DNA of 64,000 nt from Ascidiella aspersa (taxonomy: Eukaryota). Location: the NCBI GenBank assembly GCA_963924565.1, contig OZ004608.1, positions 6,324,001-6,388,000 of the forward strand, in the 5' to 3' direction. Below the pieces are notes generated by a model that did no database searches, had not been told where the DNA came from, and saw nothing but the letters and a program-made list of their open reading frames with translations. The stretch's first letter is position 1, and each line of letters opens with the position of its first letter. The translations under genes and the position numbers were made by a program. Of this stretch, positions 614 to 60,800 are shown one piece after another.

Positions 614-3600
614 CGTTGTAGATATGCTTCTGTTGAGGGGGACAAGCAATGGGAATTTCGTAGGCACCTTCCGCGACAACCCCAGGTATATTATTGGTTG
701 ATCTAAAAATGAGATTTTATTACATGTTAACTGTTAAAGTGAACAATTAAATACTATTTTAATAATCGCATTATTAAATACAGTAAGGCAGCGATTTTTT
801 TGACATGTTACTCTCGTTTTCTCTGTGGCCGTAATTGGAATAAAACAGTTTCGAAAAAAGCTGATATTATTTCGAACTTTCATGCGACAGATTTTTTTAA
901 ATGGTTTTAATGGTGCTTAATGAATGGGTTTGTTTATACGAGGGATGCAGGATGGGTTAAAATTAGTCCCAGACGGACTTCGGCAAAATTTGCAAACTCC
1001 GTCGAGGTCCGAGTTCGGCTCTCACTCTATACAGTCTGTGTTGCACTGATTTATACAACAACAAAAAATAAGGTTGATATACAGCCATCTAACTGTAGGG
1101 TGTCATAGGCTATATCTCAAGCACCCACAATACGTTGGTGGAAATAGTCCACTATATGCTATTGCAACTTTACAATTCACAGTTGGCAGCCTTTTCGTTC
1201 TCGAACTTGTTACTGCGCATGCGCACGTCCAAATCGTGGCTCTCGTGTAATCTTACGAAGTCTTACTCGAGTTTGATTTTCTCCATATATACCGACTCAA
1301 GTACCGAGTCGGACTGAGAATCCACAAAAGCTAACAAAGGAGCTTAAAAACGCTTATAAGTGGAATATATAAAATGTTTAAACTGATAAGGTATGAAAAG
1401 TTTAAACTGGTTAGGCATAGTTATCTTAACTGAAATATTTTAAAATAAATTTGCAAGTTTTACTTATAGCCATCCAGTGTTTTTTTTAAGGTGTTTTGGG
1501 GGACCGAAACGATCCCCCAAATTTCTCCAGCGGTTTCCCAAAATTTGGACTTGCAACTCTGCCAGTAGCCTAATAAATAATTCGTTTAAGCAAATATGGC
1601 TATTTTTTGGTATTTAAATGAAACACTTGCGGTCTCTTGAAACTACTTAGCGGTCACCCAAACCAAACCTTAAAAAAAACCTGGTCATATCAAACCAATT
1701 AAAATTTCTTACGCATTTCGAACATGTTTGAGTCGAATAGAATGTCTTTTCAGGCAGCATATCAACAACACAATAATGCAGACGGATGCCAACAGCAGCG
1801 ATACAAGGACAGCTATCACTGGCACTTGGAATTGAAGCGTTTCATTCTGAGTGGACGTGGGTTGAGCTGCAAAAGACGTAATGGCTCAGTGGTTTGCATT
1901 GGTAGCATATTCAGGACTTAAGATGTTCGAAACTTCCATAATTTACGGTAACTCGACTATTCGTTAACGACCTCATGGTGGGTTAATCAGTTTTATATTT
2001 CGGCACTTTTGAGTTAAAGCATAACCATTATAAATATAAAAGCTTTTAAAATAAATGTTTGCATCATAGGCGTGCTGATAAACACCTTAAAAGGTTACTG
2101 TGCAACATTAGTGACAAACATTGGCCCTTAATGATTAGGCCTATTTTTATGTACTTCAAGGCTGTTTTAAATGGCCTGCCCCAGAACACAAATACTTCTA
2201 AAGCAGTGGTTCTTAACCTTTTTTCAGCCGCGCCCCTCTTTGGTAATTTTCTCATTCCTTGCGCCCCCCTATGAAAATATTTCCACCTTTTGCAATTAAA
2301 TATCACTGAGAAAACAGGAAAATAGTGAAGGGTGTTGTTGGTCGCGCGAAGCGCGAAAAATATTGAGTTTTATTTGGTCGAATTGGCTAAACTGCAACCG
2401 AAGAGGCGTTTCGCATTGGTCACAGAACAAATTGCGCGAGCTCGACACATTGATTTTATCGAGCTGATTTTGACAAACGTGTTGCGAGGGCATTTACTCC
2501 ACAGTTGTAAGAGTTGTATAATGTCGAGCGCAAATATTATACATTGCGTTATCGTGTTTCAAAAGATGTAACGACACACAATACAACGGCAATATTGCAA
2601 AAACAATATATGTTGCTATTATCTGTTATCATATATAAAATATGGATGAAAAATAGTCCGAAAGGGCGATAGCTTTTATCGTTTATCTATAAGTTAATTT
2701 AATAGGGAGGTGATACCGTGGATTTTCTTAAAAGGAATTAGATTCGCGCGCAGCGCGAAAAATTGTTGCAGTTTTAATGTTAAAGTTCGCAAAAAACAGA
2801 GTTTGTATGTAGGAATTATTTTTCCTAACCCAAACGAAACCATTAGAATCACTGCAAAAAGTTAAAATATTGAAGTCGAGCTCGCGCACCCCCTTAGAAT
2901 TGCTTGGCGCCCCCCAAGGGGGGCACGCGCCCCCGGTTAAGAAACGCTGTTCTAAAGTCTTCATTGCAGGGAAATGTTAAAAAAATAAATATAATTAGGA
3001 AAACCTCCCGGTTTGAGAAGCAAAACTAAATGATTGTTTACGTATTATTAGTTGTAGTGCAGTTCTACCAACTGTTTTCATTCAAGAGAAACCCACCGTT
3101 TGTTTAGAATTATTTTTAGTTTTTTAATGCATTAAACGTGGGTTTGATGTATTTTTTTAACGAAGGCCCAGTTTGGAACTTGAACGAGTATAGAAGTAAG
3201 AGGTCGGGTCTGAACATACTGTTGAAAATGCGGAGCGCAATTAAAACATGCGGCAACAAATTTAATTTAAAAAGTAAATATTTGATTTTGAATATCTGAG
3301 ATAAATATTTAAATTTGAATATTTGATAACATTATTTTATTTTCCCTGAATTTTAACAGTAAGATTATACTATCACTATTAAATCTCGGATATAGTTTGA
3401 AAATACATTATTCGCAGAACAGTATAATAACCTGAAGGCGGCGATTAGCCTTTAAGCACACACAACAATCGTCTTAATATGTCAACTACTTTTGGGTCAA
3501 ACCTGTATGTGATGTGTTGGACACATCGTACGTTGTTGTTGTGACTGTGACTGGTACAAAGTTTCTTCCAAGTTTCACGGATGTCGCTGAAATTGAAGCC

Positions 3601-6600
3601 GGTTGTGTCGGAACGGTTGATGGAGCTAGTTCCCGGGCAGTTACAACTGCGATAGATAGCACAGCGTCTAATAAATGTTACGTTGTTTATTTGGCGGTGG
3701 TTTTGTTTAAATAAATGCAATGTAATTGAAAGTCGTAGTAAGAATTTTACAGCCCATACACAAGTAGGCATAATTTTAAACGTTTTGAATATCTTTTATT
3801 CATTTTTAAGATGTCTGAATAAAGAGCTATTCGAAACGTTCGAAATGATACCAACTTCTGTATGGGCTGTGATATTCTTACCAAGTCTTACTACAAGCTC
3901 CAACCATAGGGACTATGCTTCAATTGCAAGTGTTGGCAAACGGGACAACTTAAGTTAGCGGTACAGGCAAAATAACCCTAATAGTCCACGACAACCTAAA
4001 AGTAAAATTATTTTGGTATTTGTATTAAGTCCAAGATAAAACGAGAAAAACAAACAAAACCAATAGAATGGCAATTTTAATTACAAACTTTGTAATTTAT
4101 AGGTGGTGGTGCCTAAATTTAAACACTAAAATAACTGGTGGCGGTCGTTTCAGGCCGTCTTTTAAGCCAATTTCTATATTATAGATAGCCAGTTAAACAT
4201 GTAAGCTTGCTTTTAATGTAGACGAATACAGTACAGGTATATAAGAGGCATAATATGTATAGGCGTAGGCAAGAGGTTCTCAAACTGTGCGTCGTTTCCA
4301 GTGTTGTAATGACTTGTAAACGACGTCGCCGTATTTAAATGACTTAACTTGACCTAAAGTATTTTGGACAAATGACTTGACTTGACTTAAGTCGTTGTGT
4401 CAAATAACTTAAATTACGTGTTTTCATCAAATTTTTATTAATAAATTTTGGATATTAATCTCCAGTTTAAGACATAAAACAACTTGCTTGCTGTATGTTA
4501 GATTTTTGTTATTTTTTTTGTTGATTTAAGGCTCATAATCGGACGAGGTTACTAATTTTAATAATTTTACGCTTTATTTTTCTTGAAGTTGACTTGCTCT
4601 AATAATGACTTGAGTTGGGCAACTGATGACTTATGACGGTCTGGGACTTGACTCGGTATTGTTTAAAATGAGACTTAAGTCATTTCAAATTGAATTGTTT
4701 ACCACACTGCTGGTCGTTTTTATTTTTCAAGGGCGTTGCACAGAGTGATTATGTTTTGCGGGCTTCTCAAATTAAATTGCGCCTAAAGGTTTTTAATTGC
4801 GGCTATACATTGCTTTGCGGCTAAACATTGCTTCTAGATAAATTATTATTCTTTGCTTGTCACTTGCTGCAAGTTGTTTTATGTTTGAAAGTATGACGAT
4901 TTACCCACACTTAAACTAAATTAAAGCAATCCTGTGCAAAAACCCACTTTAGATCTAATTTGTTATGCTAAAGTTTTTGTTAATTTCTTGCGCTGTAGTT
5001 TCGTTTGCTTTGTTTTCTATGGTGTGCTTTTCATACATAATATAGTTAAATGACAATAATTAAATATCCTATAGCTAGGTGCGTCGAAAGACAAACAGCG
5101 TCGCGAGATATAGTTTCAGGACCACTGGAGTAGGCACCAGAAATAAACTGGTGGCCCACGTTTTTTGTCTTCACAATGCAATTTATACTTAAGAAATGCG
5201 CGCCACCATAAGCCATTCAAAAAGTATACTTTATTGGCCGACTACCTGTTGTTGTCTTGGAAGAGGTTGCGGCGACAGTTGCTGGTGATTTTTGAGTTGT
5301 TCTGGAAGTAGTTAGAACCGTTGTTGAAGGTGGAGCAAAGATTAGTAGGTGCGTCGTGGTTCTCGCTCTTGTTGCAGTAGTTGAGGAAGTTGCGGCGACA
5401 GTTGCTGGTGATTTTTGAGTTGTTCTGGAAGCAGTTGTTGATGAAGGTGGAGCAAAGGTTAGTAGGTGCGTCGTGGTTCTCGCTCTTGTTGTAGTAGTTG
5501 AGGAAGTCGTTGGGATGGCTGGTTTCGGTGTAGTGGTGCTGAGTTTGGTTACTGGAACTTAACATGAAATTTGTTGAAAACGTAATTGAAACAACCGTGT
5601 AACGTATATAGCTATGTAATGGCATTTGGCAAAGGTAAACAGTTTGCTGATTAATGTTGCGAAGCCTTAAAGTTTATACATTTGTTGACTTTACATTTTT
5701 GATACACAACCACAAATAAAACACTTGAAATTGCAAATCTCTTTCAATGAAGCATGTAGCATACAATGCACAACATGCAGCATACGATGAGACTAGACTT
5801 AATTTTATGTTTCTCGAATTTCATCACCGCTGAGCCTGTTAATCAAAGTTGGTTTAGTGCGAGGTATACGTTATGGTCAAGGAGCCATGTATTTTAATCG
5901 CACCACACTATATAGACCACGAAAGTGAAAACTAGGACCAGTGGCGGAGCCAGCCGAAAAGTTTGTGGGGTGGGGCAAAAATATTTGTTGTTTAGCTTTT
6001 ACCATTGTGTTAACTGCCGTAACGAACACAAATAACAATGCTAGCAAACCGTTTCGAGCAGCAACGGACTGAGTGTTAACGCAATACTCAAAAAACAGTC
6101 AATGAGTAAAATCTGTCTGAAAGTAGTAAAAGTACATTAATGTATAGTAAATGTTATAATAACTACATCGTTTGTGACGTAACAATGCCTGACAATTGAA
6201 GGTGTGGCATGCCTGTGATCAAATGTTGTGGTACTGCTCATAAATGCTACAAAAAATGTATTAAGAGTAAAATATTTATAATTTTTTTTGGCCATGGCCC
6301 CTCATGGCCCCTCAGGCCTTTTGGCCATGGGCCATGGCCCCTCAGGCCCCCCCCCCTGGCTACGCCTATGACTAGGATCCCTAGGCCAAATGTGACCTAC
6401 AAAACGATAATATATTGCCCGCGGGAATTTTAGTCCGGCAAGAATAATATTTTAAAAGTAAAACGAATGTAAATCGCACAGCCAATTTGTCAACCCCACA
6501 TTTATAATTTGTCAACCCCACATTTACAATTTGTCAATCCCACATTTACAATTTGTCAACCCCACACATTTATTAACCAAGAACAACACTACCGGTACTA

Positions 6601-7648
6601 ATTATTAGCCTTTCCCATCGTCAACTTGCCTGCATTGAGATCATTTAGATACAATCGAATGTTTTAAAATAATATCGGCACGATATGTGCCAATATTTCA
6701 ATAGTAAACAAAACTGGCTTCGGTCTGCCTAGTTTTTATTTAGAAGTACTTTCTGTATGTACAGAACAGTGTTTCTCAACATGCGACATCAGTACCACTA
6801 CTGACACATTAAGGCAGTTTAGGTGGTACGAGATCAGCTTTTATATAGGTGTAATGCTTTATATGTGACACAATTTATTACTGATTCACAAAGTAATCTT
6901 TACTCTTTGCCCCATTTAATGCACATATAACCTTCAATTTGCGGCAACCGCTGGAAACGACTGGTTTTGGACATATGATTTGGGCCAAATAGTTTCAGCG
7001 CCTGTAAACTACAAGTTTGAGGATAACTGGTATGGAGCGTTAATTTATTCTCTACCCTAAGTTATAATTTCGAAATTACCTTTAGTTTTGTTCTATAAAG
7101 CGAAAGTGTCACGCCAAAATTGAATAAATTATCAGCTTAACTTACCCACGCTTCTTTGGCAAACGTATGCAAGACGTTGGTTGCAAACAAAATCGTCCCA
7201 AGCCTCAGTTTGATTGAATCCAATAATAACACAATCCTCAGTTCCGGCATCGTTGTTAGGTTGTCCTCTTCTCCAGTTTGACCATGTCAGTTTTGATCCG
7301 TCCAACCAGTGGAACTCATAGGTTGTTACGTATCGCTTCAAACCGATGTAAAACTTTTTACGTGTACCTGGATGTGTTTATAAATTCATTTAAAAATAGA
7401 CAAGCAAGTTATATCATGTCAAATCTCAAACCTGCAATATTCACCACGAAATCACTTATTTTTGGCGATTTGAGTTCAACCAACGTTGATTGCATTCCCT
7501 TGCATGCTTCTAGTGCGTCATTGTACGTTTTTGGATTATTTGTCACAATGCGATATTCCAATTTGTCCAACCTATGCCAATTGACAGCGCGGGTTTTACA
7601 AAAAAGAAAGCTTACAAATATAGCAAAAACGCAATATATTGCTACCAT
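614..7648 (-). CDS. C-type lectin receptor 1: signal peptide, CTLD, long Thr/Ser mucin stalk, TM, YxxP cytoplasmic tail (last exon lies left of the window)
   Basis: Phase-compatible GT-AG exons 7648-7432, 7367-7146, 5557-5246, 3667-3503, 1866-1713, 702-614. CTLD motifs EAC, FYIGL, WLDGS, QPN, EDC, WDD.VC, YVCQ. TM VPVIAVLVSLLLASVCIIVLLICCL followed by KRHSIRLK. Tail AYEIP...HIYN. The homologous last exon is seen in the paralogous block at 22823-22708. Confidence 0.85.
2204..2949. mobile_element. Non-autonomous hAT (Charlie-like) MITE
   Basis: TIRs CAGTGGTTCTTAACC / GGTTAAGAAACGCTG with a perfect 8-bp TSD TTCTAAAG on both sides. Confidence 0.85.
3738..3881. repeat. Imperfect foldback inverted repeat, ~65-bp arms
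   Basis: GTAAGAATTTTACAGCCCATACACAAG...TTTATTCA is the near reverse complement of TGAATAAAG...CTGTATGGGCTGTGATATTCTTAC. Confidence 0.75.
4271..5127. mobile_element. Degenerate hAT MITE with a nested GACTT-rich element (4299-4709)
   Basis: Ends AAGAGGTTCTCAAACT / AGTTTCAGGACCACTG with near-TSD GCGTAGGC/GAGTAGGC. The nested element has ends CAGTGTTGTAA / TTACCACACTG; relatives occur near 17.3-17.7, 34.9-35.4 and 38.9-39.4 kb. Confidence 0.6.
5265..5507 (-). repeat. Two ~117-123 bp coding tandem repeats in the mucin exon (TSSTT[T/A]TRARTTTHLL.FAPPS...SRTTQKSPATVAA)
   Basis: Direct repeat visible in the DNA; the frame entered from the phase-1 acceptor is Thr/Ser/Pro-rich. Confidence 0.85.
5939..6370. 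mobile_element. MITE with CAGTGGCGGAGCCAG / CTGGCTACGCCTATG ends
   Basis: Imperfect TIRs with 8-bp TSD ACTAGGAC/ACTAGGAT. Confidence 0.75.
6484..6570. repeat. 22-bp minisatellite (AATTTGTCAACCCCACATTTA[T/C]) x4
   Basis: Four tandem units here; only one unit in the paralogous blocks (26286, 30559). Confidence 0.85.
6767..7029. mobile_element. Degenerate hAT MITE in the intron after the CTLD (paralogous copy ~30775-31032)
   Basis: CAGTGTTTCTCAAC ... AGTTTGAGGATAACTG; TSD is degenerate. Confidence 0.5.
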
Positions 7649-11113: not shown

Positions 11114-14066
11114 TTAAATAGTTGAACCCTTAGTCACAGCAGTAAACATTTCCTCGGTCTTTGGTTTGCTGTCAGCATTTGTAAGATGATAAGCTGCTTC
11201 GTAGGCGAAAATGTAAGTTTGAGACAACTCTTGGTTATTTTCACTTTCTTTGGAGCCTGCGTCTCTATTATCACAAATAGGGGAAGTAGCTATACGACCT
11301 GTAAAGCAAACCTGTATGTACACCACAATTATGCAAATTAATATACAGTACTATTAAAACCAACAACAAAACGAAAACGAGATAAAATAAGACAACAAAA
11401 TTCAACATAAGACCCAAATCTGTTGGAGTACGTCCAACCGTAATAAGGTATAAATTGCCTAATTGACATCTGAAGCAGCATTGTTTGAGCAGCGGTATGT
11501 TTGTCCTTGGTTAGGAGAAAAGGTTGGGTCATGGGTGGGGTCAGAAATTTGGTGGATGATGATGGCGTTATTTATGAGCTGGTGCATAAGTTATGGTTGG
11601 CGTTTTGTTTTATGTAAAGGTTAAATCTTATTCTGACTGTTTACGACTTATTTCGATCTAGTTTCTCTACTGAATTTGGTGTTATTGCTAGAGTCCACAT
11701 GCAAGTTCAGTTCTAACATATTTGTTCATATTCAAACGATATTAATTAGCGCACAGTGCGTTGGGCTGTTAACTCCCGTTTTGAGTTGTATTTTGAAACC
11801 AACTACCGCTAATGCAATGTTTGATCTTTTTATAGAAAGTATTACGCCTACTTCTCTATATTTCATGAATTTTGCTTATTTTAAGCAAAACATTACGCCA
11901 TTTTATATCGGATCGCAATGCTGTATTTTTCTCGAAAACATAAGGATAATAGATTGGTAAAAAGAACTACACATTGTCAGAAATATTTATGGTCGTGCTG
12001 AATAATTAGTAATATTATATTGTCGTGCAACACTATAACCGACATGTAAAAACGCATTCGATGGACTTACCATTCGACGGTTCGGAGTACTCCACTTCCT
12101 GTTCAGGTAATATAAGGTTGTCTGCCACCGTACTGTATTCCAGAATCAATCTTCGCTCTTCTTCATGACTTTCCCAATAAGGCGCTGGTTCAGCTGAAGC
12201 TGCCAAGGTTGCCATTTCTGTTCTATTTAGGCGTGAATACTTGTTGGGGTCTTGTTGTGCTGCTTCCAGTTGTAACACCGCATATTCTGGCCACGTTGGC
12301 AGCTCGTACTCATTTTCTACTTGTAAAAAATCGTTGAATATGGTATTTTATAACTGACATAATTGGTAATTAATGCTAAACCCGTGCCATCAGGTCGCCC
12401 ATTAGGACCAAATAAAACGTCTATTCTAAAAAGAACTAACAACCAGCTAGCCATTACATGAAATTTATATTAAAAATGATCAATGCCACATAAATGAGTA
12501 TCAATAATTGTTTAATATAATATCTATAGGAAAATTGAGCAATTTATGATCGGAGAAGAGTGCAAACTAGGACTTGTCTGACTATGTGCCCATAAAGGAG
12601 CCGTCCCTTTTAAAAATGTAGTGACCCCTATTTTATATCAACTATATCGATTTTTAGAATTTTTGAAAAAAAATTCAACACCAAGGAAAAAAAAAGCATA
12701 ACAATTCTAAATTTCACCAATGATTACCGTTCTTCGGTGGTTCCGTTTTCTGACATTTCCTGCAATGAGAAACAAACGAAAGTTATTCCCTCCCACCTAT
12801 ATACTATAGGTTTGCATCAACCAAATCTTCCACCCACCTCAGCCAATACATCGCAGCAACAACTGCGCAGCAAAGAAGCACAGCTCCAGCGATTAAAGCC
12901 ACCAGTGTTGTGGTTATGTTTCGCGTAAACTTTGTGGGCGGTGTTGTACTGTTGACTGTGAAATAGCACGCCTTATTATTTGTAATACCTAAAAGTCTTA
13001 GAAGGTCACAGAAGTTGGTTTGAAAAGTTCGCCTAACTTGATTGTCCTTATGGCCACACCCGAAGTCACATTGTACAACGTCTGCTAGCCTAGAAGTACG
13101 TTTTGTTTAATTAACAAAATAATAAAGTTACCAGCAATAGCTAAACAACAGACCGCAAAATCGAGAATTTTTTTTAGCTACAATTAGGAAATTTTTAGTG
13201 CACCCATTCACCTTGCGGTCCTGCGTCTGTTGCTATTCTGTCGGACACACGTGAAGGCGTACTTTTGAAATTCGCCTGATCTGAGATGTTTAAACCAAAT
13301 ATATATAGTTAATGAGTAAATTATGCATATTTCTCATACCCCTGGTTATCAATAGTCTTGCTATTTTCGCCATGGCTCCTAACACGCTACGTTTTTATAC
13401 GTCCAGTATTAAGACTTATAAAACAATAACTGGATAACTGGTATGGAGCGTTAATTTATTCTATATACTACCCTAAGTTATAATTTCGAAATTGCCTTTA
13501 GTTTTGTTCTATAAAGCGAAAGTGTCATGCAAAAATTGAATAAACTATCAACTTAACTTACCCACGCTTCTTTGGCAAACGTATGAAAGACGTAGTGAGC
13601 AAACGAAATCGTTCCAAAACTCAGTTTGACCCCCCAACCCAATAACAACACAATCCTCAGTTCCGACAACGTTATTAGGTTGTCCTATTCTCCAGGTCGA
13701 CCATGTCAGTTTTGATCCGTCCAACCAACGGAACTCATTGGTTGTTACGTCTCGCTTCAAACCGATGTAAAACCCTCCACGTGTACCTGGATGTATTTAT
13801 AAATACGTTAAAAATATAACAGCCACTTACGTCATGTCAAATCTCAAACCTGCAAGATTCGCCACGAAATCATTTATTTTGGGGGATTTGAGTTCAACCA
13901 ACGTTGATTGCATTCCCTTGCATGCTTCTAGTGCGTCATTGTACGTTTTTGAATCATTTGTCACAACGAGATATTCCAATATGTTCAACCTATGCCAACT
14001 GACAGCACAGGTTTCACACAAAAGAAAGCTGACAAATATCGGCAAAACGTAATATATTGCTACCAT
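11114..14066 (-). CDS. C-type lectin receptor 2: signal peptide, CTLD, short stalk, TM, long tail with ITAM-like and ITIM-consensus tyrosine motifs
   Basis: Phase-compatible exons 14066-13850, 13786-13562, 13280-13212, 12955-12838, 12759-12728, 12420-12382, 12316-12071, 11298-11114. CTLD has QPN and WND. TM LVALIAGAVLLCCAVVAAMYWL then RKCQK. Tail ENEYELP, EYAVL-x11-YSRL, LEYSTV, VEYSEP, ending GSTI*. The small exons and last exon are less certain. Confidence 0.78.
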
Positions 14067-21200: not shown

Positions 21201-22707
21201 AATGCGAACAATGGCTGCTACAGCTTAACGTTTTACGTTTGTGAGCGGTTCTCTATCGATATACGTCACGCGTTTTCGTTACGTAAAATATGTTTGTCGT
21301 GGTAAGCCATTGGGCATTTAGTCGTTTCATTTCAACAAGCACACAATATTGCATTTTTTACTACATATTACTGTTTATTTTACGAAAACGAAGTATTAAA
21401 TATTTCACAGTCACACAGATAAATGCGAGATTTTATAACACGCCATCCCATTAAATGCTACTTCCACACAAGCTAAAAGGCGTGACTCCAATTGTGGGAA
21501 AGCACAGTTAACCCATTTCAGGCACAATCAGCAAAAAAACAGTCCAAAACAGTCCAGGAACGATCAACACATATAGGCTGTATAGCAATTAACGATAAGG
21601 AAATTTAACATGTTTTAATTAAGGGAAACTAAAATGTGTACCACTTTACACACTATTTAGCACTCTAGCCAGGATATTACGCTGTCCGTAACATTACGTT
21701 TTGATAACATGGTAAATTGCCTTTTTAAATCATCGGCAATTACACGCAGCTTAAGAAAATGACGCAAAGTTCAAGATAATGTGTAATAGTTCTTAAGAGA
21801 CCACAGCTTGAGGGAAGCTTGCATTTTTTTAAAACTATACATGAGAATAATTCGGGGAATACGAATTTGTTATGGACACAGAATTTTCCCACTATGTAGG
21901 GTCTAATGTTGTAGCTGTTTTCATGATGCCGCAAGCGGATTGCTTTAGGATTTTGAAAGCAGTCAACGGAGCCGGGGATTAAACTCCTCGGAAAATCTTG
22001 TTGCAGAGTTTGTGAAGGGAAAAGTTGCTTTTTCAAGGGGCTGCAAGACTGTCATTCGTATGGTGTCAGTTTGCTGTTATATCCGTATTTGATATTTACC
22101 GTGACTTGTGGGTTGGGTTTTTCAAAATCGGCAACGTATTTAACTTATCCCCATCGATTATTTTGTTTAATTTTACCCCTTAAAAGTTAATAATATATGG
22201 GTTGGGTGGCTTTGAGATATTACTTAGAAAAAGGCCGATTTTAGCGGTGTCGGTTTAAGTTAATACTTTTTAAGTTAGCATTTGTATTTAACGCCAAAAT
22301 GTCATTATTCCAGCAACAAGGAACGTAGCGTTGTTTTTTATAATGTGCGCAAAAACTTGCACGCGAAAACGTAATAGAAAAATATAATAAACATTAACCA
22401 ACACGCACAAAAATTATATACTATTCACATTGTCATATAGACTTTAGTTACAAGTCTAAAAATCTGTGTTAACTATTTTGCACAGCTTTCATGAGTGGTC
22501 TTCAACTCCAATTAAAATAAAAGGTAAAACGTGCGTTTTAATGATTGCTTTGGTTTGCTAATCTTTCATTAGCTTGACATTGATAAACAAGCGAACCAGA
22601 CAACAGGCTTAAATGTGTTAAGGAAAATCCGGGTTGTTTTAGTGAGCCATTGAAACGGGTATTAAAGTATAATGTGGAGGGAACAGAAAGCATAAGGGTT
22701 AACTTTA

Positions 22708-24999
22708 CTATGCAGAGAACTCCACGTATCCCTGGTCTCTTTCCTCACTTCCACGGGACGGAAATATAGGGTTGGGTTCCACGTAACCATTTTCTTCGTC
22801 TTCGTCAACAATTTCTAATGGAACTGAACAAAAATGTTGTAAACCTAAAGAGGCGATGTGTTAATAACCTATAAACTCTTTTTTGTAAATGGCCGATTTT
22901 TATTACCCTAGAACAGTGGTTCTCAACCTTTTTTCTTTTGTGAGCCGTTTTCGTTGCACAAAAATACTTTGGCCCAATAAATGTTTATAAAAGAACAAAC
23001 TATGAAAAAGGTTTAGAACAAAAAACAGCGGAGCATCTATCAAAACAGATTATTTATTTAACCGTGCATTAGTGAGATTGCTTCTGAACAATAAGTTTAC
23101 ATTGGTTCTCGATTCCTCCCCAAGCCATTATTCCTGTAAAATTAAGTATAGTGACACAAATAAAAATAATTCTTCAATAAATATACAGTTTTTAAATTCG
23201 TCTGTGGCCCACCTAAAAAGTTTCCATGGCCCACTGGTTGAGAACCGCTGCCCTAGTGGTATATTTGCAAATATCTGCTAAAGCTGTATTTCATAGTTTG
23301 ACATTATAAAGAGTTTTTAAAGTTTCACGAGCTTTTAGGTATTCCGTTTTATTATGATTTGTTTTAAAGTATCGTACCATGCTTAGTTGCTAGTCTTACT
23401 CAACAAAACTAGGGATGGGAATAAAAAATATTGGTTTGTACTAAGAGTGTTACGAACGAAACCAGCATAAAAAAACGGGAAATTGTAAGGAACACGATTA
23501 TTTTGAAGTACCGGTACAAAAACCTTTTGAAAGAATGGAAAAGCAAACTATATACGACTGACTGTAACAAAAATATGTGATCTACTTGGAAAATAGTTTT
23601 GTTTATAACAATTTTAATTGGACGTGTTGCATGTTTCAACTAACATTTTCAAATGCTGGAAGAGCATCTTATTTTTTGGGCGACAACCTATTTGAGGTTC
23701 GAATTTACTTTACTTTGAGGAGCAGATGTAATTTTCTATTGCGTCTTACCGTTGTAGATATGCTTCTGTTGAGATGGACAAGCAATGGGAATTTCGTAGG
23801 CACCTTCCGCGACAACCCCAGGTATATTATTGGTTGATCTAAAAATTAGATTTTATTACATGTTAACTGTTAAAGTGAGCAATTAAATACTATTTTAATC
23901 GCATTATTAAATACAGTAAGGCAGCGATTTTTTTGACATGTTACTCTCGTTTTCTCTGTGGTCGTAATTGGAATTAAACAGTTTCGAAAAAAGCTGATAT
24001 CATTTCGAACTTTCATGCGACAGATTTTTTTAAATTGTTTTAATGGTGCTTAATGAATGGGTTTGTTTTTATACGAGGGATGCAGGATGGGTTAAAATTA
24101 GTTCCAGACGGACTTCGGCAAAATTTGCAAACTCCGTCGAAGTCCGAGTTCGGCTCTCACTCTATACAGTCTGTGTTGCACTGATTTATACAACAACAAA
24201 AAATAAGGTTGATATACAGCAATCTAACTGTAGGGTGTCATAGGCTATATCTCAAGCACCCACAATACGTTGGTGGAAATAGTCCACTATATGCTATTGC
24301 AACTTTACAATTCACAGTTGGCAGCCTTATCGTTCTCGAACTTGTTACTGCGCATGCGCACGTCCAAATCGTGTCTCTCGTGTAATCTTACGAAGTCTTA
24401 CTCGAGTTTGATTTTCTCCATATATACCGACTCAAGTACCGAGTCGGACTGAGAATCCACAAAAGCTAACAAAGGAGTTTAAAAACGCTTATAAGGGGAA
24501 TATATAAAATGTTTAAACTGATAAGGTATGGAAAGTTTAAACTGGTTAGGCATAGTTATCTTAACTGAAATATTTTAAAATAAATTTGCAAATTTTACTT
24601 ATAGCCATCCAGTGTTTTTTTAAGGTGTTTTGGGGGCCGAAACGATCCCCCAAATTTCTCCAGCGGTTTCCCAAAATTTGGACTTGCAACTCTGCCAGTA
24701 GCCTAATAAATAATTCGTTTAAGCAAATATGGCTATTTTTTGGTATTTAATTGAAACACTTGCGGTCTCTTGAAACTACTTAGCGGTCACCCAAACCAAA
24801 CCTTAAAAAAAACCTGGCCATATCAAACCAATCAAAATTTCTTACGCATTTCGAACTTGTTTAAGCCGAATAGAATATCTTTTCAGGCAGCATATCAACA
24901 ACACAATAATGCAGACGGATGCCAACAGCAGCGATGCAAGGACAGCTATCACTGGCACTTGGAATTGAAGCGTTTCATTCTGAGTGGCCGTGGTTTGAG
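22708..24999 (-). other. Second copy of the lectin-3 TM+tail exon cassette (exons 24999-24846, 23838-23750, 22823-22708) with no lectin exons of its own
   Basis: Same splice sites and reading frame as 29272-26982. Confidence 0.75.
22914..23250. mobile_element. hAT-type MITE in the last intron of the receptor tail
   Basis: TIRs CAGTGGTTCTCAACC / GGTTGAGAACCGCTG; near-TSD CCCTAGAA/CCCTAGTG. Confidence 0.8.
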
Positions 25000-26981
25000 C
25001 TGCAAAAGACGAAATTGCTTAGTGGTTTGCATGTGTAGCATATTCAGGACTTAAGATGTTCGAGAAACTTCCATAATAGACTATTCGTTAACGACAGGCT
25101 GGGTTAAAGTTTTATATTCATGCTGGGTTAAAGTTTTATATTGCGGCACTTTTGAGGTAAAGCATAACCATTATAAATATAAAAGCTTTTAAAATAAATG
25201 TTTGCATCATAGGCGTGCTGATAAACACATTAAAAGGTTACTGTGCAACATTAGTGACAAACATTAGCCCTTAATGATTAGGCCTATTGCTTCAATTGCA
25301 AGTGTTGGCAAACGGGACAACTTAAGTTAGCGGTACAGACAAAACAACCCTAATAGTCCACGACAACCTAAAAGTAAAATTATTTTGGTATTTGTATTAA
25401 GTCCAAGATAAAACGAGAAAAACAGACAAAACCAATAGAATGGCAATTTACATTACAAACTTTGTAATTTATAGGTGGTGGTGTCTAAATGTAAACACTA
25501 AAATATCTGGTGGCGGTCGTTTCAGGCCGTCTTTTAAGCCAATTTCTATATTATAGATAGCCAGTTAAACATGTAAGCTTGCTTTTAATGTAGACGAATA
25601 CAGTACAGGTATATAAGAGGCATAATATGTATAGGCGTAGGCAAGAGGTTCACAAACTGTGCGTAGTTTCCTGTGTTGTAATGACTTGTGCACGACGTCG
25701 CGGTATTTAAATGACTTAACTTGACCTAAAGTATTTTGGACAAATGACTTGACTTGACTTAAGTCGTTGTGTCAAATAACTTAAATTACGTGTTTTCATC
25801 AAATTTTTATTAATAAATTTTGGATATTAATCTCCAGTTTAAGACATAAAACAACTTGCTTGCTGTATGTTACGTTTTTGTTATTTTTTTGTTGATTTAA
25901 GGCTCATAATCGGACGAGGTTACTAATTTTAATAATTTTACGCTTTATTTTTCTTGAAGTTGACTTGCTTTAATAATGAGTTGAGTTGGGCAACTGATGA
26001 CTTGGTCTGGGACTTGACTCGGTATTGTTTAAAATGAGACTTAAGTCATTTTAAATTGAATTGTTTATCACACTGCTGGTCGTTTTTATTTTTCAAGGGC
26101 GTTGCAGAGAGTGATTATGTTTTGCGGACTTCCCAAATTAAAAGCTCCTCAGCCCCCCCCCCTGGCTACGCCTATGGGACCCCTAGGCCAAATGTGACCT
26201 ACAAAACGATAATATATTACCCGCGGCAATTTTAGTCCGGCAAGAATAATATTCTGAAAGTAAAACGAATGTAAATCGCACAGCCAATTTGTCAACCCCA
26301 CATTTTTCAAGGGGCTGCAAGACTGTCATTCGTATGGTGTCAGTTTGCTGTTATATCCGTATTTGATATTTACCGTGACTTGTGGGTTGGGTTTTTCAAA
26401 ATCGGCAACGTATTTAACTTATCCCCATCGATTATTTTGTTTAATTTTACCCCTTAAAAGTTAATAATATATGGGTTGGGTGGCTTTGAGATATTACTTA
26501 GAAAAAGGCCGATTTTAGCGGTGTCGGTTTAAGTTAATACTTTTTAAGTTAGCATTTGTATTTAACGCCAAAATGTCATTATTCCAGCAACAAGGAACGT
26601 AGCGTTGTTTTTTATAATGTGCGCAAAAACTTGCACGCGAAAACGTAATAGAAAAATATAATAAACATTAACCAACACGCACAAAAATTATATACTATTC
26701 ACATTGTCATATAGACTTTAGTTACAAGTCTAAAAATCTGTGTTAACTATTTTGCACAGCTTTCATGAGTGGTCTTCAACTCCAATTAAAATAAAAGGTA
26801 AAACGTGCGTTTTAATGATTGCTTTGGTTTGCTAATCTTTCATTAGCTTGACATTGATAAACAAGCGAACCAGACAACAGGCTTAAATGTGTTAAGGAAA
26901 ATCCGGGTTGTTTTAGTGAGCCATTGAAACGGGTATTAAAGTATAATGTGGAGGGAACAGAAAGCATAAGGGTTAACTTTA

Positions 26982-29900
26982 CTATGCAGAGAACTCCACG
27001 TATCCCTGGTCTCTTTCCTCACTTCCACGGGACGGAAATATAGGGTTGGGTTCCACGTAACCATTTTCTTCGTCTTCGTCAACAATTTCTAATGGAACTG
27101 AACAAAATGTTGTAAACCTAAAGAGGCGATGTGTTAATAACCTATAAACTCTTTTTTGTAAATGGCCGATTTTTATTACCCTAGAACAGTGGTTCTCAAC
27201 CTTTTTTCTTTTGTGAGCCGTTTTCGTTGCACAAAAATACTTTGGCCCAATAAATGTTTATAAAAGAACAAACTATGAAAAAGGTTTAGAACAAAAAACA
27301 GCGGAGCATCTATCAAAACAGATTATTTATTTAACCGTGCATTAGTGAGATTGCTTCTGAACAATAAGTTTACATTGGTTCTCGATTCCTCCCCAAGCCA
27401 TTATTCCTGTAAAATTAAGTATAGTGACACAAATAAAAATAATTCTTCAATAAATATACAGTTTTTAAATTCGTCTGTGGCCCACCTAAAAAGTTTCCAT
27501 GGCCCACTGGTTGAGAACCGCTGCCCTAGTGGTATATTTGCAAATATCTGCTAAAGCTGTATTTCATAGTTTGACATTATAAAGAGTTTTTAAAGTTTCA
27601 CGAGCTTTTAGGTATTCCGTTTTATTATGATTTGTTTTAAAGTATCGTACCATGCTTAGTTGCTAGTCTTACTCAACAAAACTAGGGATGGGAATAAAAA
27701 ATATTGGTTTGTACTATGAGTGTTACGAACGAAACCAGCATAAAAAAACGGGAAATTGTAAGGAACACGATTATTTTGAAGTACCGGTACAAAAACCTTT
27801 TGAAAGAATGGAAAAGCAAACTATATACGACTGACTGTAACAAAAATATGTGATCTACTTGGAAAATAGTTTTGTTTATAACAATTTTAATTGGACGTGT
27901 TGCATGTTTCAACTAACATTTTCAAATGCTGGAAGAGCATCTTATTTTTTGGGCGACAACCTATTTGAGGTTCGAATTTACTTTACTTTGAGGAGCAGAT
28001 GTAATTTTCTATTGCGTCTTACCGTTGTAGATATGCTTCTGTTGAGATGGACAAGCAATGGGAATTTCGTAGGCACCTTCCGCGACAACCCCAGGTATAT
28101 TATTGGTTGATCTAAAAATTAGATTTTATTACATGTTAACTGTTAAAGTGAGCAATTAAATACTATTTTAATCGCATTATTAAATACAGTAAGGCAGCGA
28201 TTTTTTTGACATGTTACTCTCGTTTTCTCTGTGGTCGTAATTGGAATTAAACAGTTTCGAAAAAAGCTGATATCATTTCGAACTTTCATGCGACAGATTT
28301 TTTTAAATTGTTTTAATGGTGCTTAATGAATGGGTTTGTTTTTATACGAGGGATGCAGGATGGGTTAAAATTAGTTCCAGACGGACTTCGGCAAAATTTG
28401 CAAACTCCGTCGAAGTCCGAGTTCGGCTCTCACTCTATACAGTCTGTGTTGCACTGATTTATACAACAACAAAAAATAAGGTTGATATACAGCAATCTAA
28501 CTGTAGGGTGTCATAGGCTATATCTCAAGCACCCACAATACGTTGGTGGAAATAGTCCACTATATGCTATTGCAACTTTACAATTCACAGTTGGCAGCCT
28601 TATCGTTCTCGAACTTGTTACTGCGCATGCGCACGTCCAAATCGTGTCTCTCGTGTAATCTTACGAAGTCTTACTCGAGTTTGATTTTCTCCATATATAC
28701 CGACTCAAGTACCGAGTCGGACTGAGAATCCACAAAAGCTAACAAAGGAGTTTAAAAACGCTTATAAGGGGAATATATAAAATGTTTAAACTGATAAGGT
28801 ATGGAAAGTTTAAACTGGTTAGGCATAGTTATCTTAACTGAAATATTTTAAAATAAATTTGCAAATTTTACTTATAGCCATCCAGTGTTTTTTTAAGGTG
28901 TTTTGGGGGCCGAAACGATCCCCCAAATTTCTCCAGCGGTTTCCCAAAATTTGGACTTGCAACTCTGCCAGTAGCCTAATAAATAATTCGTTTAAGCAAA
29001 TATGGCTATTTTTTGGTATTTAATTGAAACACTTGCGGTCTCTTGAAACTACTTAGCGGTCACCCAAACCAAACCTTAAAAAAAACCTGGCCATATCAAA
29101 CCAATCAAAATTTCTTACGCATTTCGAACTTGTTTAAGCCGAATAGAATATCTTTTCAGGCAGCATATCAACAACACAATAATGCAGACGGATGCCAACA
29201 GCAGCGATGCAAGGACAGCTATCACTGGCACTTGGAATTGAAGCGTTTCATTCTGAGTGGCCGTGGTTTGAGCTGCAAAAGACGAAATTGCTTAGTGGTT
29301 TGCATGTGTAGCATATTCAGGACTTAAGATGTTCGAGAAACTTCCATAATAGACTATTCGTTAACGACAGGCTGGGTTAAAGTTTTATATTCATGCTGGG
29401 TTAAAGTTTTATATTGCGGCACTTTTGAGGTAAAGCATAACCATTATAAATATAAAAGCTTTTAAAATAAATGTTTGCATCATAGGCGTGCTGATAAACA
29501 CATTAAAAGGTTACTGTGCAACATTAGTGACAAACATTAGCCCTTAATGATTAGGCCTATTGCTTCAATTGCAAGTGTTGGCAAACGGGACAACTTAAGT
29601 TAGCGGTACAGACAAAACAACCCTAATAGTCCACGACAACCTAAAAGTAAAATTATTTTGGTATTTGTATTAAGTCCAAGATAAAACGAGAAAAACAGAC
29701 AAAACCAATAGAATGGCAATTTACATTACAAACTTTGTAATTTATAGGTGGTGGTGTCTAAATGTAAACACTAAAATATCTGGTGGCGGTCGTTTCAGGC
29801 CGTCTTTTAAGCCAATTTCTATATTATAGATAGCCAGTTAAACATGTAAGCTTGCTTTTAATGTAGACGAATACAGTACAGGTATATAAGAGGCATAATA

Positions 29901-31654
29901 TGTATAGGCGTAGGCAAGAGGTTCACAAACTGTGCGTAGTTTCCTGTGTTGTAATGACTTGTGCACGACGTCGCGGTATTTAAATGACTTAACTTGACCT
30001 AAAGTATTTTGGACAAATGACTTGACTTGACTTAAGTCGTTGTGTCAAATAACTTAAATTACGTGTTTTCATCAAATTTTTATTAATAAATTTTGGATAT
30101 TAATCTCCAGTTTAAGACATAAAACAACTTGCTTGCTGTATGTTACGTTTTTGTTATTTTTTTGTTGATTTAAGGCTCATAATCGGACGAGGTTACTAAT
30201 TTTAATAATTTTACGCTTTATTTTTCTTGAAGTTGACTTGCTTTAATAATGAGTTGAGTTGGGCAACTGATGACTTGGTCTGGGACTTGACTCGGTATTG
30301 TTTAAAATGAGACTTAAGTCATTTTAAATTGAATTGTTTATCACACTGCTGGTCGTTTTTATTTTTCAAGGGCGTTGCAGAGAGTGATTATGTTTTGCGG
30401 ACTTCCCAAATTAAAAGCTCCTCAGCCCCCCCCCCTGGCTACGCCTATGGGACCCCTAGGCCAAATGTGACCTACAAAACGATAATATATTACCCGCGGC
30501 AATTTTAGTCCGGCAAGAATAATATTCTGAAAGTAAAACGAATGTAAATCGCACAGCCAATTTGTCAACCCCACATTTATTAACCAAGAACAACACTACC
30601 GGTACTAATTATTAGCCTTTCCCATCGTCAACTTACCTGCATTGAGATCATTTAGATACAATCGAATGTTTTAAAATTATATCGGCACGATATGTGGCAA
30701 TATTTCAATAGTAAACAAAACTTGCTTCGGTCTGCCTATTTTTTATTCAGAAGTACTTTCTGTATGTACAGAACAGTGTTTCTCAACTTGCGACATCAGT
30801 ACCACTACTGACACATTAAGGCAGTTTAGGCGGTACGGGATCAGCTTTTATATAGGTGTAACGCTTTATATGTGACGTAATTTATTACTGATTCACAAAG
30901 TAATCTTTACTCTTTGCCCCATTTAATGCACATATAACCTTCAATGTGCGGCTACCGCTGGAGCTACTGGTTTTGGACATATAATTTGGGCCAAATAGTT
31001 ATATCGCCTGTAAAATACAAGTTTGAGGAACTGGTATGGAGCGTTAATTTATTCTATATACTACCCTAAGTTATAATTTCGAAATTGCCTTTAGTTTTGT
31101 TCTATAAAGCGAAAGTGTCATGCAAAAATTAAATAAACTATCGGCTTAACTTACCCACGCTTCTTTGGCAAACGTATTCAAGACGTAGTGAGCAAACGAA
31201 AGCGTACCACGCCCCCATTTGATCCAATCCAAAAATAACACAATCCTCAATTCCGAAAACGATATTAGGTTCTCCTATTCCCCAGTTCGACCATGTCAGT
31301 TTTGATCCGTCCAACCAGTGGAACTCATCGGTTGTTGCGTCTCGCTTTAGGCCGATGTAAAACTTTTTACGTGTACCTGGATGTGTTTATAAATACATTT
31401 AAAAATAGACAAGCAAGTTATATCATGTCAAATCTCAAACCTGTAAGATTCGCCACGAAATTGTTTATTTTTTGGGATTTGAGTTCCACCAACGTTGATT
31501 GCATTTTCTTGCATGCTTCTAGTGAGTCATTGTAGGTTTTTGGATTATTTGTCACAGCGCGATATTCCAAGTTGTCCAACCTATGCCAACTGACAGCGCA
31601 GGTCTCACACAAAAGAAAACTTACAAATATTGTTAAAACGCTATATTTCACCAT
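26982..31654 (-). CDS. C-type lectin receptor 3: signal peptide, CTLD (EPN / WYA), no mucin stalk, TM, YxxP tail
   Basis: Exons 31654-31441, 31376-31155, 29272-29119, 28111-28023, 27097-26982 splice in frame. Tail ...EGAYEIPIACPSQQKHIYNVPLEIVDEDEENGYVEPNPIFPSRGSEERDQGYVEFSA*. Confidence 0.85.
27187..27523. mobile_element. hAT-type MITE (duplicate of 22914-23250)
   Basis: Same TIRs and flanks, inside the tandem duplication. Confidence 0.8.
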
Positions 31655-57832: not shown

Positions 57833-60800
57833 ATGTCTGACTTGGAAACGATAAAAGTTACTTTAATCTATAAAAGTGACGCTGAGTTTAAGGCGAGCAA
57901 TTGGGGTGATGAGGAATGGCTTAAGTTTGGAAAAAGTTTACCGCCCAACGGGTTTGGTTGGAGTGAGAAGGGCCACGAAAAGCTAAAGGCTGGGGGTGCC
58001 ACTGCAATTTTGTTTGTGGCGCTGCAAGACAATGGTCACAGGCCGACGTCGATTTCCGAGAAGCAAGGACAAGTTAACTTTGACCTTAAAGTTCTGAAAG
58101 ATTTAGAAGACTCAATAAATGAATACATACGGTCAGGAAAGTTTAAGTTCAAGGTTCAGCAGGCTCTGGATAAAATGCATGCCGAGATGAGCACTGTTTT
58201 TCCAGGTGGATTTGCTCTGACCGTGACGTCAATCACAAGGTATCTATAAATATTGGACTCAAAAAACGGTTTTTAAGCGTTTTTCAAAGTTTAAAACATG
58301 TCGCACAAGTCTCTAGAAACCGTGAACTTTTTCCTTTGTTAGTGGAAATTGAAATGAGTTGCGAGATATGGGTGGGAAACATATTATGGCACCAGCCATA
58401 ATTTTGCCTATTGAAAGTAAAATCATAGGCTTGTGAAAAGTAATAAAATTTACCGGGAGAGAAAATCATGATTGTCATGTTGACAAAGATTGAACTTTAT
58501 TTTTAGTTTTGCTTACTAGTACCATAGTTACTATTCAAAATTTAATTTGAATGTTTTTATTTTGCTAGTCCTTCTGCTATCATCAACGTCGACAATGGTA
58601 ATTGTTTTGAACTATTTGTTTAATTCGTACTCAAATAAACATTTAAACCGATATTTTATATTTATTTTGAAGAAATTTCACAACAGGTTTGCAAAATGGA
58701 AGACGGTTGTCTAACAGTTGTTCCAGAAGCGATTGAATCGATATTTGGGCAGCCGTTGGTAGACGAATCTCATGTCGCTGTAATTTCCATAACAGGAGAA
58801 GCGAGAACCGGAAAGTCGTTTTTGCTTAGTTTACTATCTCGCTACTTCGCAAAATTGGAGCTAGGAAAGGTAATGATGTACATACAATTTTGTAGTGTGT
58901 CAAATTGTGGAATATATGATACTTATTTATAAATTGGACCATTTCGTTTTATTTCTATGTAAACACACGTGCTGTAATCTCAGATTAACTTTTCTGTTGA
59001 GTTAAAACACAAGTCTAAACCTACAAAAAAGTTAACAAAAACTCATAAAGAGTATTTCAGTCAACTTTGTGCAAATTATAAATTAAAGCCCGTTTTTGGG
59101 TGCAATATAACCAATTTTAATTATTTTTTACGCGTTTCGTACGAGTCTTCACCGCTAACGACTATATAATGTGAACAGAGTTTTGCAGGAACTCTAATTT
59201 CATTGATAACAGTTACGTCATAGAGTAACGCCATGACACGAAAAAACCTAAAAACGCATGACTTCGTGACTCGCGGACCCCCTTTGGGTGCGATCCTATT
59301 GTCTACATTTTAAGTATAATTTGATACTTCGTTTAGTGAGTAGTCTAACATACATTCAACAGGATATTTAGCTAAAATTTTTCTCATTGATTTTCAATAA
59401 AATAATGAACATATGGATATGTTGTTTATTCGTTCCAATTTCCGAGTTTTCGAAGGAGCAGTACACTATGCTTATCATACAGGCAGACGAATGGAAAAAT
59501 GATCTGGATGCAAATGTGAACACATTGTTTAACTGGAGAGGTGGTGACAGCGCACAAACTAAAGGAATATGGATTTCAAAAAAGCCTTTTTGGATTGAAA
59601 CTAAAAATGAAAAAGTGATTGCATTTCAGTTATTTTATATGCTGACGTTCTACATTATTTTATATGTTCTCAGTGCTATATATATGATAAGATATTTCCT
59701 TCATGCACCCCTATTGTATGCCATTTGGGTTGTAGCTTTATTTCTATTCTTTGTTTATGACGTTTGGTGAATTGACTTATTCTCTTCACCCAAACAGAAA
59801 CCACACCAAAAATGGTTACAGCTATTTGTATTGGTTTAGCATGTCATTCTTGAATATTTAATATTCAGATTGCAGTGTTTTTGATGGATTCACAAGGGTT
59901 GTTCGACACAGTTGATACGAACACAGAAATGTCAAAACTCTTTGCTATGAGTGCTTTGTTTAGTTCGTTTCTGACACTAAATGTTGTTAAGAAAGTGTCC
60001 GCCCCTAACCTTCAAGCACTTCAGGTTGGTATGTTTACCATAACTCAACTTTACACAAATCTTAACAGAAGAATATATTTTATTATAGAAGTTTGCAGAG
60101 TACGCTGAAATCTTTTGCGAGCCTGGAGTGAAATATGAGGTAAGAGTAACAAAACAGTGCGCTAAACGACCCTAAAGCAATACATCAATATGTCCTATAG
60201 TTATGGTAATAATTAACCTACATTAAATTTGTTGCCATACCTTGTTTGGTTGATATTATTATCCACTTTGAGTATATGCCAAATTAAAAAAAATATAACG
60301 AAGGGAATTGTAAAATATTTGTAATGTTCATGTTTCTCATGATTTGTACGAACTGGGAAAATACTTTTAAAAACACATAAGACGTATTGCAAAATTATAG
60401 TTTAACTTCTTCGACCCTGCTTAAGACACTTTTTTATATGTTAACTTTACAGTCTCTTCTTATTTTGATACGAGATTGGAACGGAAAAAAATCAGGGTTT
60501 GGCTTTAAGGCTGGCCGAGAACACATAAAATCGACTTTGCAATCTAAAAGTGTGGCCAAAGAAAACAGGAAGGCGTCGGACCAACTTCTAAATTCATTCA
60601 ATAAATATGAGTGCTTTGCTCTACCAGAACCTGGCAATGAAATCCGGAATTCTGATTTTGAAGTCAGCAAAAGTTATAGCTTGGAAGGTATAAACAATTT
60701 ATAATCAATAAGTTAATTTTATATGTTTCATTACACAAAATCATTCATTTTTTATCTGTCAATTAATTTACTGTACTTAAATGGATATAATTTAAACAAT

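Follow-up and report, generated by a model that had tools for sequence, protein, structure and literature searches.

Clustered genes for activating and inhibitory C-type lectin receptors are familiar from vertebrates, as in the natural killer (NK) complex, Ly49 and Dectin-1/2. A cluster of apparently similar design is present in Ascidiella aspersa, a tunicate and thus a member of the sister group of vertebrates, and we describe here one of its genes, lectin 2, a predicted receptor with a tyrosine-rich cytoplasmic tail. Lectin 2 lies in a 64,000-nucleotide stretch (assembly GCA_963924565.1, contig OZ004608.1, positions 6,324,001 to 6,388,000; G000:C2:6324001-6388000 in our numbering), which is called the window; positions without a prefix count from its first letter. 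The tyrosine-based activation motif of immunoreceptors (ITAM) is YxxL/I-x6-12-YxxL/I, canonically with a 6-8-residue spacer and a D/ExxY start; the inhibitory motif (ITIM) is [ILVS]xYxx[LV]; and a class I PDZ ligand is S/T-x-hydrophobic-COOH.

Among ascidians, Botryllus schlosseri fester co-receptor (FcoR) genes, like lectin 2, encode type I receptors in polymorphic multigene clusters, and their tails carry ITIM, hemi-ITAM (hemITAM), 'core' YxxI/L/V and [A/D]VYxxV sites, some mixing inhibitory and activating elements (PMC12582321). The likeness is one of description: FcoR belongs to the Ig superfamily and is paired with Fester partners, whereas lectin 2 has one C-type lectin domain as its head; in FcoR, motifs are swapped by alleles and splicing, whereas lectin 2 holds pair and ITIM in one exon, and its family varies, unlike FcoR, by exchange of whole transmembrane (TM)/tail cassettes between genes. 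Mouse FCRL5, and FCRL2-5 generally, resemble lectin 2 in having an ITAM-like pair, then an ITIM, and an uncharged TM segment, and dual function has been demonstrated for FCRL5 (PMC4690519). FCRL5 differs in its Ig ectodomain, in acting in B cells and in ITAM-like tyrosines 13 apart, against 15 apart and elastic across the family in lectin 2. Drosophila Draper-I/II engages Shark through an ITAM and Corkscrew, the SHP2 orthologue, through an ITIM (PMC4503800, PMC8092387), and shares NPxY motifs with relatives of lectin 2; unlike lectin 2, Draper has an EGF/EMI/NIM ectodomain, is a single gene and places ITAM and ITIM on separate splice forms. Lectin 2 would work like FcoR, FCRL5 and Draper but belongs to none of them. 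The vertebrate lectins named above, and the ascidian CD94-like proteins already known (PMC5465252), are type II, whereas the lectin 2 family is type I, with a signal peptide and a C-terminal tail; the resemblance to NK-type clusters is one of convergent design and does not make lectin 2 a member.

We propose, tentatively and at somewhat less than even probability, that the lectin 2 tail is a phosphotyrosine docking platform mainly recruiting SHP2, which would make lectin 2 the damping member of a paired-receptor set. Ca2+-dependent glycan binding would cluster lectin 2, and a Src-family kinase would phosphorylate its acid-flanked tyrosines. The tandem SH2 domains of SHP2 would then engage the ITIM-like site LEYSTV (Y295) and, as a second site, YSRL (Y261, 34 residues upstream), and the recruited SHP2 would oppose the signalling of neighbouring receptors, lectins 1 and 3 for example, with acidic GY tails that lack an ITIM. 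A Syk-type kinase may bind as well, to the YAVL/YSRL pair, which would then act as two elastic half-sites rather than as a canonical ITAM. The spacing of Y261 and Y295 is close to that of the GAB1 pair Y627/Y659, 32 residues apart, which SHP2 binds bivalently through a 9-residue SH2 linker (PMC12132298); about 50 A separates the two pockets of SHP2 (PMC7078208). In GAB1 and in PD-1 (Y223/Y248), two sites 25-32 residues apart lie in a disordered region (PMC12132298, PMC7078208). By comparison, only one of the two lectin 2 sites fits the ITIM consensus, and its tail contains no tyrosine-based switch motif of immunoreceptors (ITSM).

Tail motifs of lectin 2 and their conservation

Lectin 2 is predicted to encode a 377-aa type I receptor in eight exons with an open frame (minus strand, 11114-14066). 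The order is signal peptide, one C-type lectin domain, short Thr-rich stalk, uncharged TM helix and a 168-aa tail, as follows:

13850..14066, minus: exon 1, encoding the signal peptide and the C-type lectin domain's N-terminal half (Pfam Lectin_C, E 0.0014)
13562..13786, minus: exon 2, encoding the lectin domain's C-terminal half with YIGL, QPN, E-D and WND (Pfam Lectin_C, E 1.7e-10; PDB C-type lectins)
13212..13280, minus: exon 3, stalk, phase 1-1
12838..12955, minus: exon 4, end of the Thr-rich stalk and uncharged TM helix (residues 188-209, 12905-12840)
12728..12759, minus: exon 5, basic juxtamembrane segment, phase 2-1
12382..12420, minus: exon 6, predicted 13-codon exon, phase 1-1, none seen in paralogues
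12071..12319, minus: exon 7, bearing the tyrosine motifs, phase 1-1, 83 codons
12297..12317, minus: ENEYELP (Y238, a YxxP site; Tyr codon 12308), kept in nearby paralogues
12228..12284, minus: YAVL-x11-YSRL pair (Y246, Y261), ITAM-like, with an elastic spacer in the family
12126..12143, minus: LEYSTV (Y295), ITIM consensus, 34 residues after Y261
12078..12095, minus: VEYSEP (Y311; Tyr codon 12089), AVYSEA in paralogues
11114..11298, minus: exon 8, last exon, ending G-S-T-I-stop (11128-11114)

The preliminary description had read the four exon 7 motifs and the G-S-T-I end from the sequence, and each is present at its place on the minus strand. Exon 7 also belongs to the predicted gene, since under the predicted splicing it joins the TM exon in frame and its phases are those seen in the paralogues. 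The pair supplies two YxxL/I half-sites, YAVL and YSRL, but their spacer of 11 is inside the looser 6-12 range only; a search of the tail for a canonical x6-8 ITAM and for a D/E-x-x-Y start found neither, and the residues before the first tyrosine (T-W-P-E-Y) are acidic at -1 only, not at -3. LEYSTV matches the S/I/V/LxYxxI/V/L consensus of ITIMs (PMC8631942).

Chance was estimated from 20,000 shuffles of the 168-aa tail. The YxxL/I-x6-12-YxxL/I pattern arose in 2.9%, the ITIM consensus in 18% and a class I PDZ end in 2.4% of shuffled tails; pair and ITIM occurred together in 1.0%, and all three jointly, a post hoc combination, in 0.035%. Taken one at a time the motifs are therefore weak, and the case rests on how well they are conserved and not on how rare they are.

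Of 18 candidates scored across the genome, 17 match exon 7, and all of these lie on C2. Nine nearby paralogues (48-52% identity to lectin 2) served for comparison, and the tyrosine motifs proved conserved in these related genes, which had been set as a test of the preliminary description: 9/9 Tyr and +3 residues are shared with the paralogue majority, against 31/72 other positions (Fisher p 0.001). The nonsynonymous divergence (dN) between lectin 2 and the paralogues is 0.20-0.23 in motif codons and 0.40-0.43 elsewhere, and dN over the synonymous rate (dS) is 0.37-0.48 for the whole exon at a dS of about 0.85. Variation in two runs covering the locus, X1 and X2, points in the same direction. 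These runs behave as DNA and are silent on expression, because introns are covered and no splice joints were seen. Among the variant rows listed (all but two), 13 exon 7 codons differ in X1/X2; all four changes within YSRL and LEYSTV are silent, including both inside LEYSTV, against two of nine outside (p 0.021), where the other seven alter the residue, one of them removing the non-motif Y281. The tail tyrosines and their +3 residues look to be under stronger purifying selection than the rest of exon 7.

A wider family set of 25 tail-exon copies was obtained by pattern search of the fetched DNA; the pattern demands the second half-site, and four tyrosine-poor tail copies fall outside the set for that reason. 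Both pair tyrosines are present in 22 of the 25, with a spacer of 11 in ten copies, 15 in six, 16 in two and 21 in four, and the first half-site ends in Met in five. The ITIM consensus is present in 15/25 copies, off-consensus in five and missing in five, yet it occurs in 12/12 nearby full-length copies that retain the site. The distance from second to third tyrosine is 25-38 in 20/25 copies and 34 in 11. Three close paralogues have lost the second tyrosine and kept the ITIM. The stretches examined contained one canonical x6-8 acidic ITAM, outside lectin 2's class. The ITIM site of the preliminary description is thereby upheld. Of its ITAM-like pair, the two conserved half-sites stand and a fixed spacing does not: the pair is not a fixed ITAM because the family spacer is 11, 15, 16 or 21. 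From this comparison the half-sites appear old and their spacing does not.

The PDZ-type C-terminus fared less well. The predicted last exon does end in S-T-I-stop and fits a class I ligand, but among ten last exons this end occurs only in lectin 2 and its partial copy; of the eight paralogous last exons, three fit the consensus at non-homologous positions and five do not. Three paralogues have a sense codon at the place of the lectin 2 stop, the former coding end is still alignable within the 3' untranslated region of lectin 2, and the tyrosine of the paralogues' MYTAV is Phe in exon 8. Judged by these alignments, the S-T-I end is a lineage-specific truncation by an early stop, and it is probably incidental, although it may have acquired a role secondarily.

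A lectin cluster with exchanged heads and tails

Exon 2 has at least 143 matches in the genome (150 of 223 candidates scored), 134 of them on C2, and 118 of the listed C2 matches lie between 5.87 and 7.56 Mb. The 1,258 kb fetched hold 132 lectin exon-2 loci (49 + 83). In the 49-gene array around the window, nine genes have long tails like lectin 2 with the full pair, three have long tails minus the second tyrosine, three have truncated tyrosine-poor tails (counted by gene; four exon hits) and 30 have short tails with acidic GY sites (one mislabelled); for four the tail was not found. Three of the nine lectin 2-class genes look intact, lectin 2 included, and one is without exon 1 in the stretch examined. 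In 28 of the 30 short-tail models there is no ITIM consensus in the last 85 residues. Two short-tail genes flank lectin 2 in the window:

614..7648, minus: lectin 1, other TM, short ITIM-free tail with acidic GY sites; last exon just beyond the window
26982..31654, minus: lectin 3, same TM/tail class as lectin 1

Their lectin domains are 78% (lectin 1) and 75% (lectin 3) identical to that of lectin 2, and the domains of lectin 2 and four relatives are 73-81% identical. The array has clustered genes with similar ectodomains, and different TM/tail types sit on similar heads, as in paired receptors. Activating members of vertebrate paired receptors use a charged TM residue and an adaptor; no charged residue was found in the TM cores of lectins 1-3 or in the TM hits read.

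A tree of 51 heads was built, 11 of 62 genes being excluded as partial or unparsed; one head is mislabelled S3 (its TM hit lies 17 kb away) and stands outside both tested groups. The lectin 2 head groups (support 100/99) with heads bearing other tails, apart from the remaining long-tail genes. In approximately unbiased (AU) tests, monophyly is rejected both of the 12 long-tail heads (p 5e-5) and of the three heads with the lectin 1/3 tail (p 5e-6). The trees reject joint descent, and heads and tails do not appear to travel together, which is a paired-receptor pattern. Duplicated blocks link both sides of lectin 2 to other loci: the 5' side is 97% identical over 5.2 kb to one relative, and the 3' side has a 93-95% inverted copy 0.65 Mb away. 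The idea that lectin 2 itself is a recombinant was dropped, as these blocks give no direction. Among the five closest heads, lectin-domain dN/dS is 0.75-1.32 over ten pairs, a range compatible with diversification or drift, and a test on the heads did not show positive selection on the sugar-binding loop.

Counterparts outside this genome were sought in several ways. A word search with exon 2 gave 0/3 candidates, a profile search of 1.84 billion representatives returned one hit, a 1550-aa repeat artefact, and 0/46 pattern matches in metagenome contigs are lectin 2 orthologues; an ESM Atlas search and a PDB search with a paralogue tail found no orthologue either. In the literature covered, which mostly leaves out subscription journals, we found neither a tunicate type I C-type lectin cluster with such tails nor a shortened tunicate Syk linker.

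Several further observations concern the cluster. The inverted copy of the lectin 2 3' half (G000:C2:6984987-6990804, 93-95%) is joined to a lectin 1 head and has exons 5-7 deleted; the deletion joint is visible also in run X1. Positions 22029-26305 and 26303-30578 of the window form a 4.27-kb tandem duplication, 99.95% identical, that repeats lectin 3 TM and tail exons and is either a very recent event or an assembly artefact. Short-tail genes at G000:C2 5.87-6.35 Mb mostly have an acidic run, then G-Y-V-x-P, and a second site G-Y-V-E-F; the start is hemITAM-like, with Pro at +3. In the stretches fetched from G000:C2 6.4-7.56 Mb, 28 V-x-N-P-L-Y (NPxY-type) motifs lie in open frames, some repeated in lectin tails. 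Identical pairs of lectin heads, at G000:C2 6.17-6.19 and 6.25-6.26 Mb and at 6.03 and 6.17-6.20 Mb, point to recent multi-gene segmental duplications in the array. The closest head to that of lectin 2 (G000:C2:6297295-6285691) has an 11.6-kb first intron, against about 65 bases in relatives, and no TM exon was found for it.

Candidate readers and competing explanations

The survey of possible readers found 55 SH2 matches in the genome, of which 20 stretches were fetched. The genome encodes an SHP2 orthologue, Src-type kinases, an SH2-ankyrin-SH2-kinase gene read as Shark and, on C4, an SH2 exon that lies upstream of 5-phosphatase exons, at 17-20 kb from them, which suggests a SHIP-like locus. 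Syk and ZAP-70 are the best full-length PDB matches of two further SH2-SH2-kinase genes, which have no introns and encode 601 and 606 aa:

G000:C1, about 3.416 Mb: Syk/ZAP-70-like kinase, L081:3118-4920
G000:C1, about 31.716 Mb: Syk/ZAP-70-like kinase, L082:2622-4439

No third Syk-like gene appeared in an exon-wise genome search, which could miss one. Between the aligned SH2 blocks these kinases have 9 residues, against 52 in human Syk, and a short, variable SH2 linker is found also in three relatives (P0002-P0004). The expected helical interdomain A of about 45-60 residues is thus lacking in L081 and L082, and the structure model of a Syk-like kinase contains no helical interdomain, although its Foldseek TM-scores (0.43-0.46) and predicted TM-score (pTM, 0.52) are too weak for domain orientation. 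For comparison, the ZAP70 SH2 linker is helical and 60 residues long (PMC12132298), interdomain A comprises residues 115-159 (PMC6743456) and amphioxus Syk is described with interdomain A (PMC13344425). Because the Syk-like kinases lack most of interdomain A, vertebrate spacing rules can neither accept nor reject an 11-residue pair. Two other long single-frame, apparently intronless kinase open reading frames were seen at G000:C5:19585857 (1118 aa) and C1:33174394 (829 aa).

Our preferred reading, that the tail mainly recruits SHP2, fits these sequences at least as well as a dual switch does, but several points weigh against it. The optimum of SHP1 at pY+1 is a medium non-polar residue (PMC8631942), where lectin 2 has Ser, and SHP2 can also promote signalling (PMC8024022). 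Across the family it is the YxxL pair and not the ITIM that persists best, which speaks for a reader of the pair. The nine paralogues are close kin (mean dS 0.09), so that the conservation test amounts to a single comparison. The allele test weakens to p about 0.09 (hand calculation) when the motif is taken to include the residue preceding YSRL, and one of the X2 contigs, with 12 differences over 135 bases, is possibly a paralogue. In spliced-alignment models, five of the nine lectin 2-class genes are interrupted by a frameshift or stop ahead of the tail, and the activating sign of the short tails is read from their hemITAM-like look only, with +3 mostly Pro.

The preliminary description had proposed a switch, in which one receptor recruits both Syk-type kinases and SHP/SHIP-type phosphatases. 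Put in present terms, pY246/pY261 would recruit a Syk-type kinase or Shark and pY295 SHP2 or SHIP, and their balance would set the output; we regard this as possible and as the nearest rival, though on the unlikely side. The pair is the best-kept element (22/25), its spacer is 11 in all 13 nearby copies, the motif codons are constrained, and the genome holds candidate readers: two Syk/ZAP-70-like kinases, whose 9-residue linker means that vertebrate spacing rules need not hold, Shark, SHP2 and the SH2 plus 5-phosphatase locus. ITAM spacers of 11 and 12 residues are found in Draper and FcgammaRIIA. Both motifs are functional in FCRL5 (PMC4690519), and single tails of Botryllus FcoR4 alleles combine ITIM with hemITAM(-like) sites (PMC12582321). 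However, lectin 2 has neither an x6-8 ITAM nor a D/ExxY start, the spacer is 15, 16 or 21 in 12/22 copies with a Met-ending first half-site in five, the three close paralogues dropped the second tyrosine yet hold the ITIM, and the ITAM-like site of FCRL5 bound Lyn, not Syk (PMC4690519).

It is decidedly unlikely that the tail is activating or endocytic only, its tyrosines docking kinases or adaptors or acting as YxxPhi sorting signals and the ITIM not being inhibitory. The ease with which an ITIM match arises by shuffling (18%), the 10/25 copies without the consensus in which the pair is kept, and the NPxY repeats added in some relatives would fit this account, as would a Halocynthia ITAM-bearing haemocyte protein that acts in phagocytosis and aggregation (PMC5465252). 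It is opposed by the third site, where the hydrophobic residue at -2 and Val/Ile at +3 are kept together in 15/25 copies, distant ones included, and where both allelic changes are silent. Very improbable, too, is the reading of lectin 2 as a chimeric copy, silent or in decay, with leftover motifs: many neighbours are broken, the head dN/dS reaches 0.75-1.32 and the partial copy of its 3' half has lost exons 5-7, but lectin 2 has an open 377-aa frame, all four lectin cysteines and canonical splice sites, exon 7 dN/dS is 0.37-0.48 at a dS of about 0.85, and no exon 7 stop or frameshift is among the variants listed for X1 and X2.

Another tunicate tail with ITIM and ITAM would be unsurprising, because Botryllus FcoR and the Halocynthia ITAM protein are known. 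The interest of lectin 2 lies in its setting, a very large type I lectin cluster exchanging heads and tails, together with linker-poor Syk-like kinases. A broader proposal, which we consider unlikely as a whole, is that more than 130 genes form a type I lectin immune complex, convergent with the NK complex, that shuffles activating and inhibitory tail cassettes; the 11-21-residue pairs would be ITAM equivalents for Syk-type kinases minus interdomain A, and lectin 2 would be a one-chain switch. The natural spacers of 11, 15, 16 and 21 residues offer a test of whether rigid ITAM-Syk spacing is a vertebrate specialisation.

Gene model and minor observations

The seven predicted introns of lectin 2 are all GT-AG. 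The lectin domain (Pfam PF00059, Lectin_C, with matches also to PDB C-type lectins) has four core cysteines, C49 in exon 1 and C118, C135 and C143 in exon 2, and a WIGL-like YIGL. The sugar-binding residues of Ca2+ site 2 are EPN/QPD...E...WND; in this region lectin 2 has QPN, E-D and WND, and its QPN differs from the canonical triplets EPN/QPD. The exon 7 acceptor is a tandem NAGNAG (12319 or 12316), both in frame. An earlier model of 420 aa, in which a Cys-rich insert added 43 residues ahead of the TM segment, was replaced by the 377-aa model: an in-frame upstream exon 4 acceptor at 13084 is possible but disfavoured, as paralogues use the site homologous to 12955, and the 43 residues are more likely intronic because paralogues skip them and the partial copy is frameshifted there. 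A possible 13-base exon with an in-frame stop after exon 2 is an alternative to the predicted splicing. The X1 and X2 contigs, like the partial copy, have Asp in place of two last-exon tyrosines, Y349 and Y353 (window 11203 and 11191), which may be private to the GCA_963924565.1 assembly.

Elsewhere in the window, both strands of positions 37000-63000 carry exon-rich genes, several in number, which by their P-loop and LLILLRDW-type segments look like atlastin/guanylate-binding-protein GTPases, and positions 60755-61215 contain about 400 bases of a hexanucleotide simple repeat.

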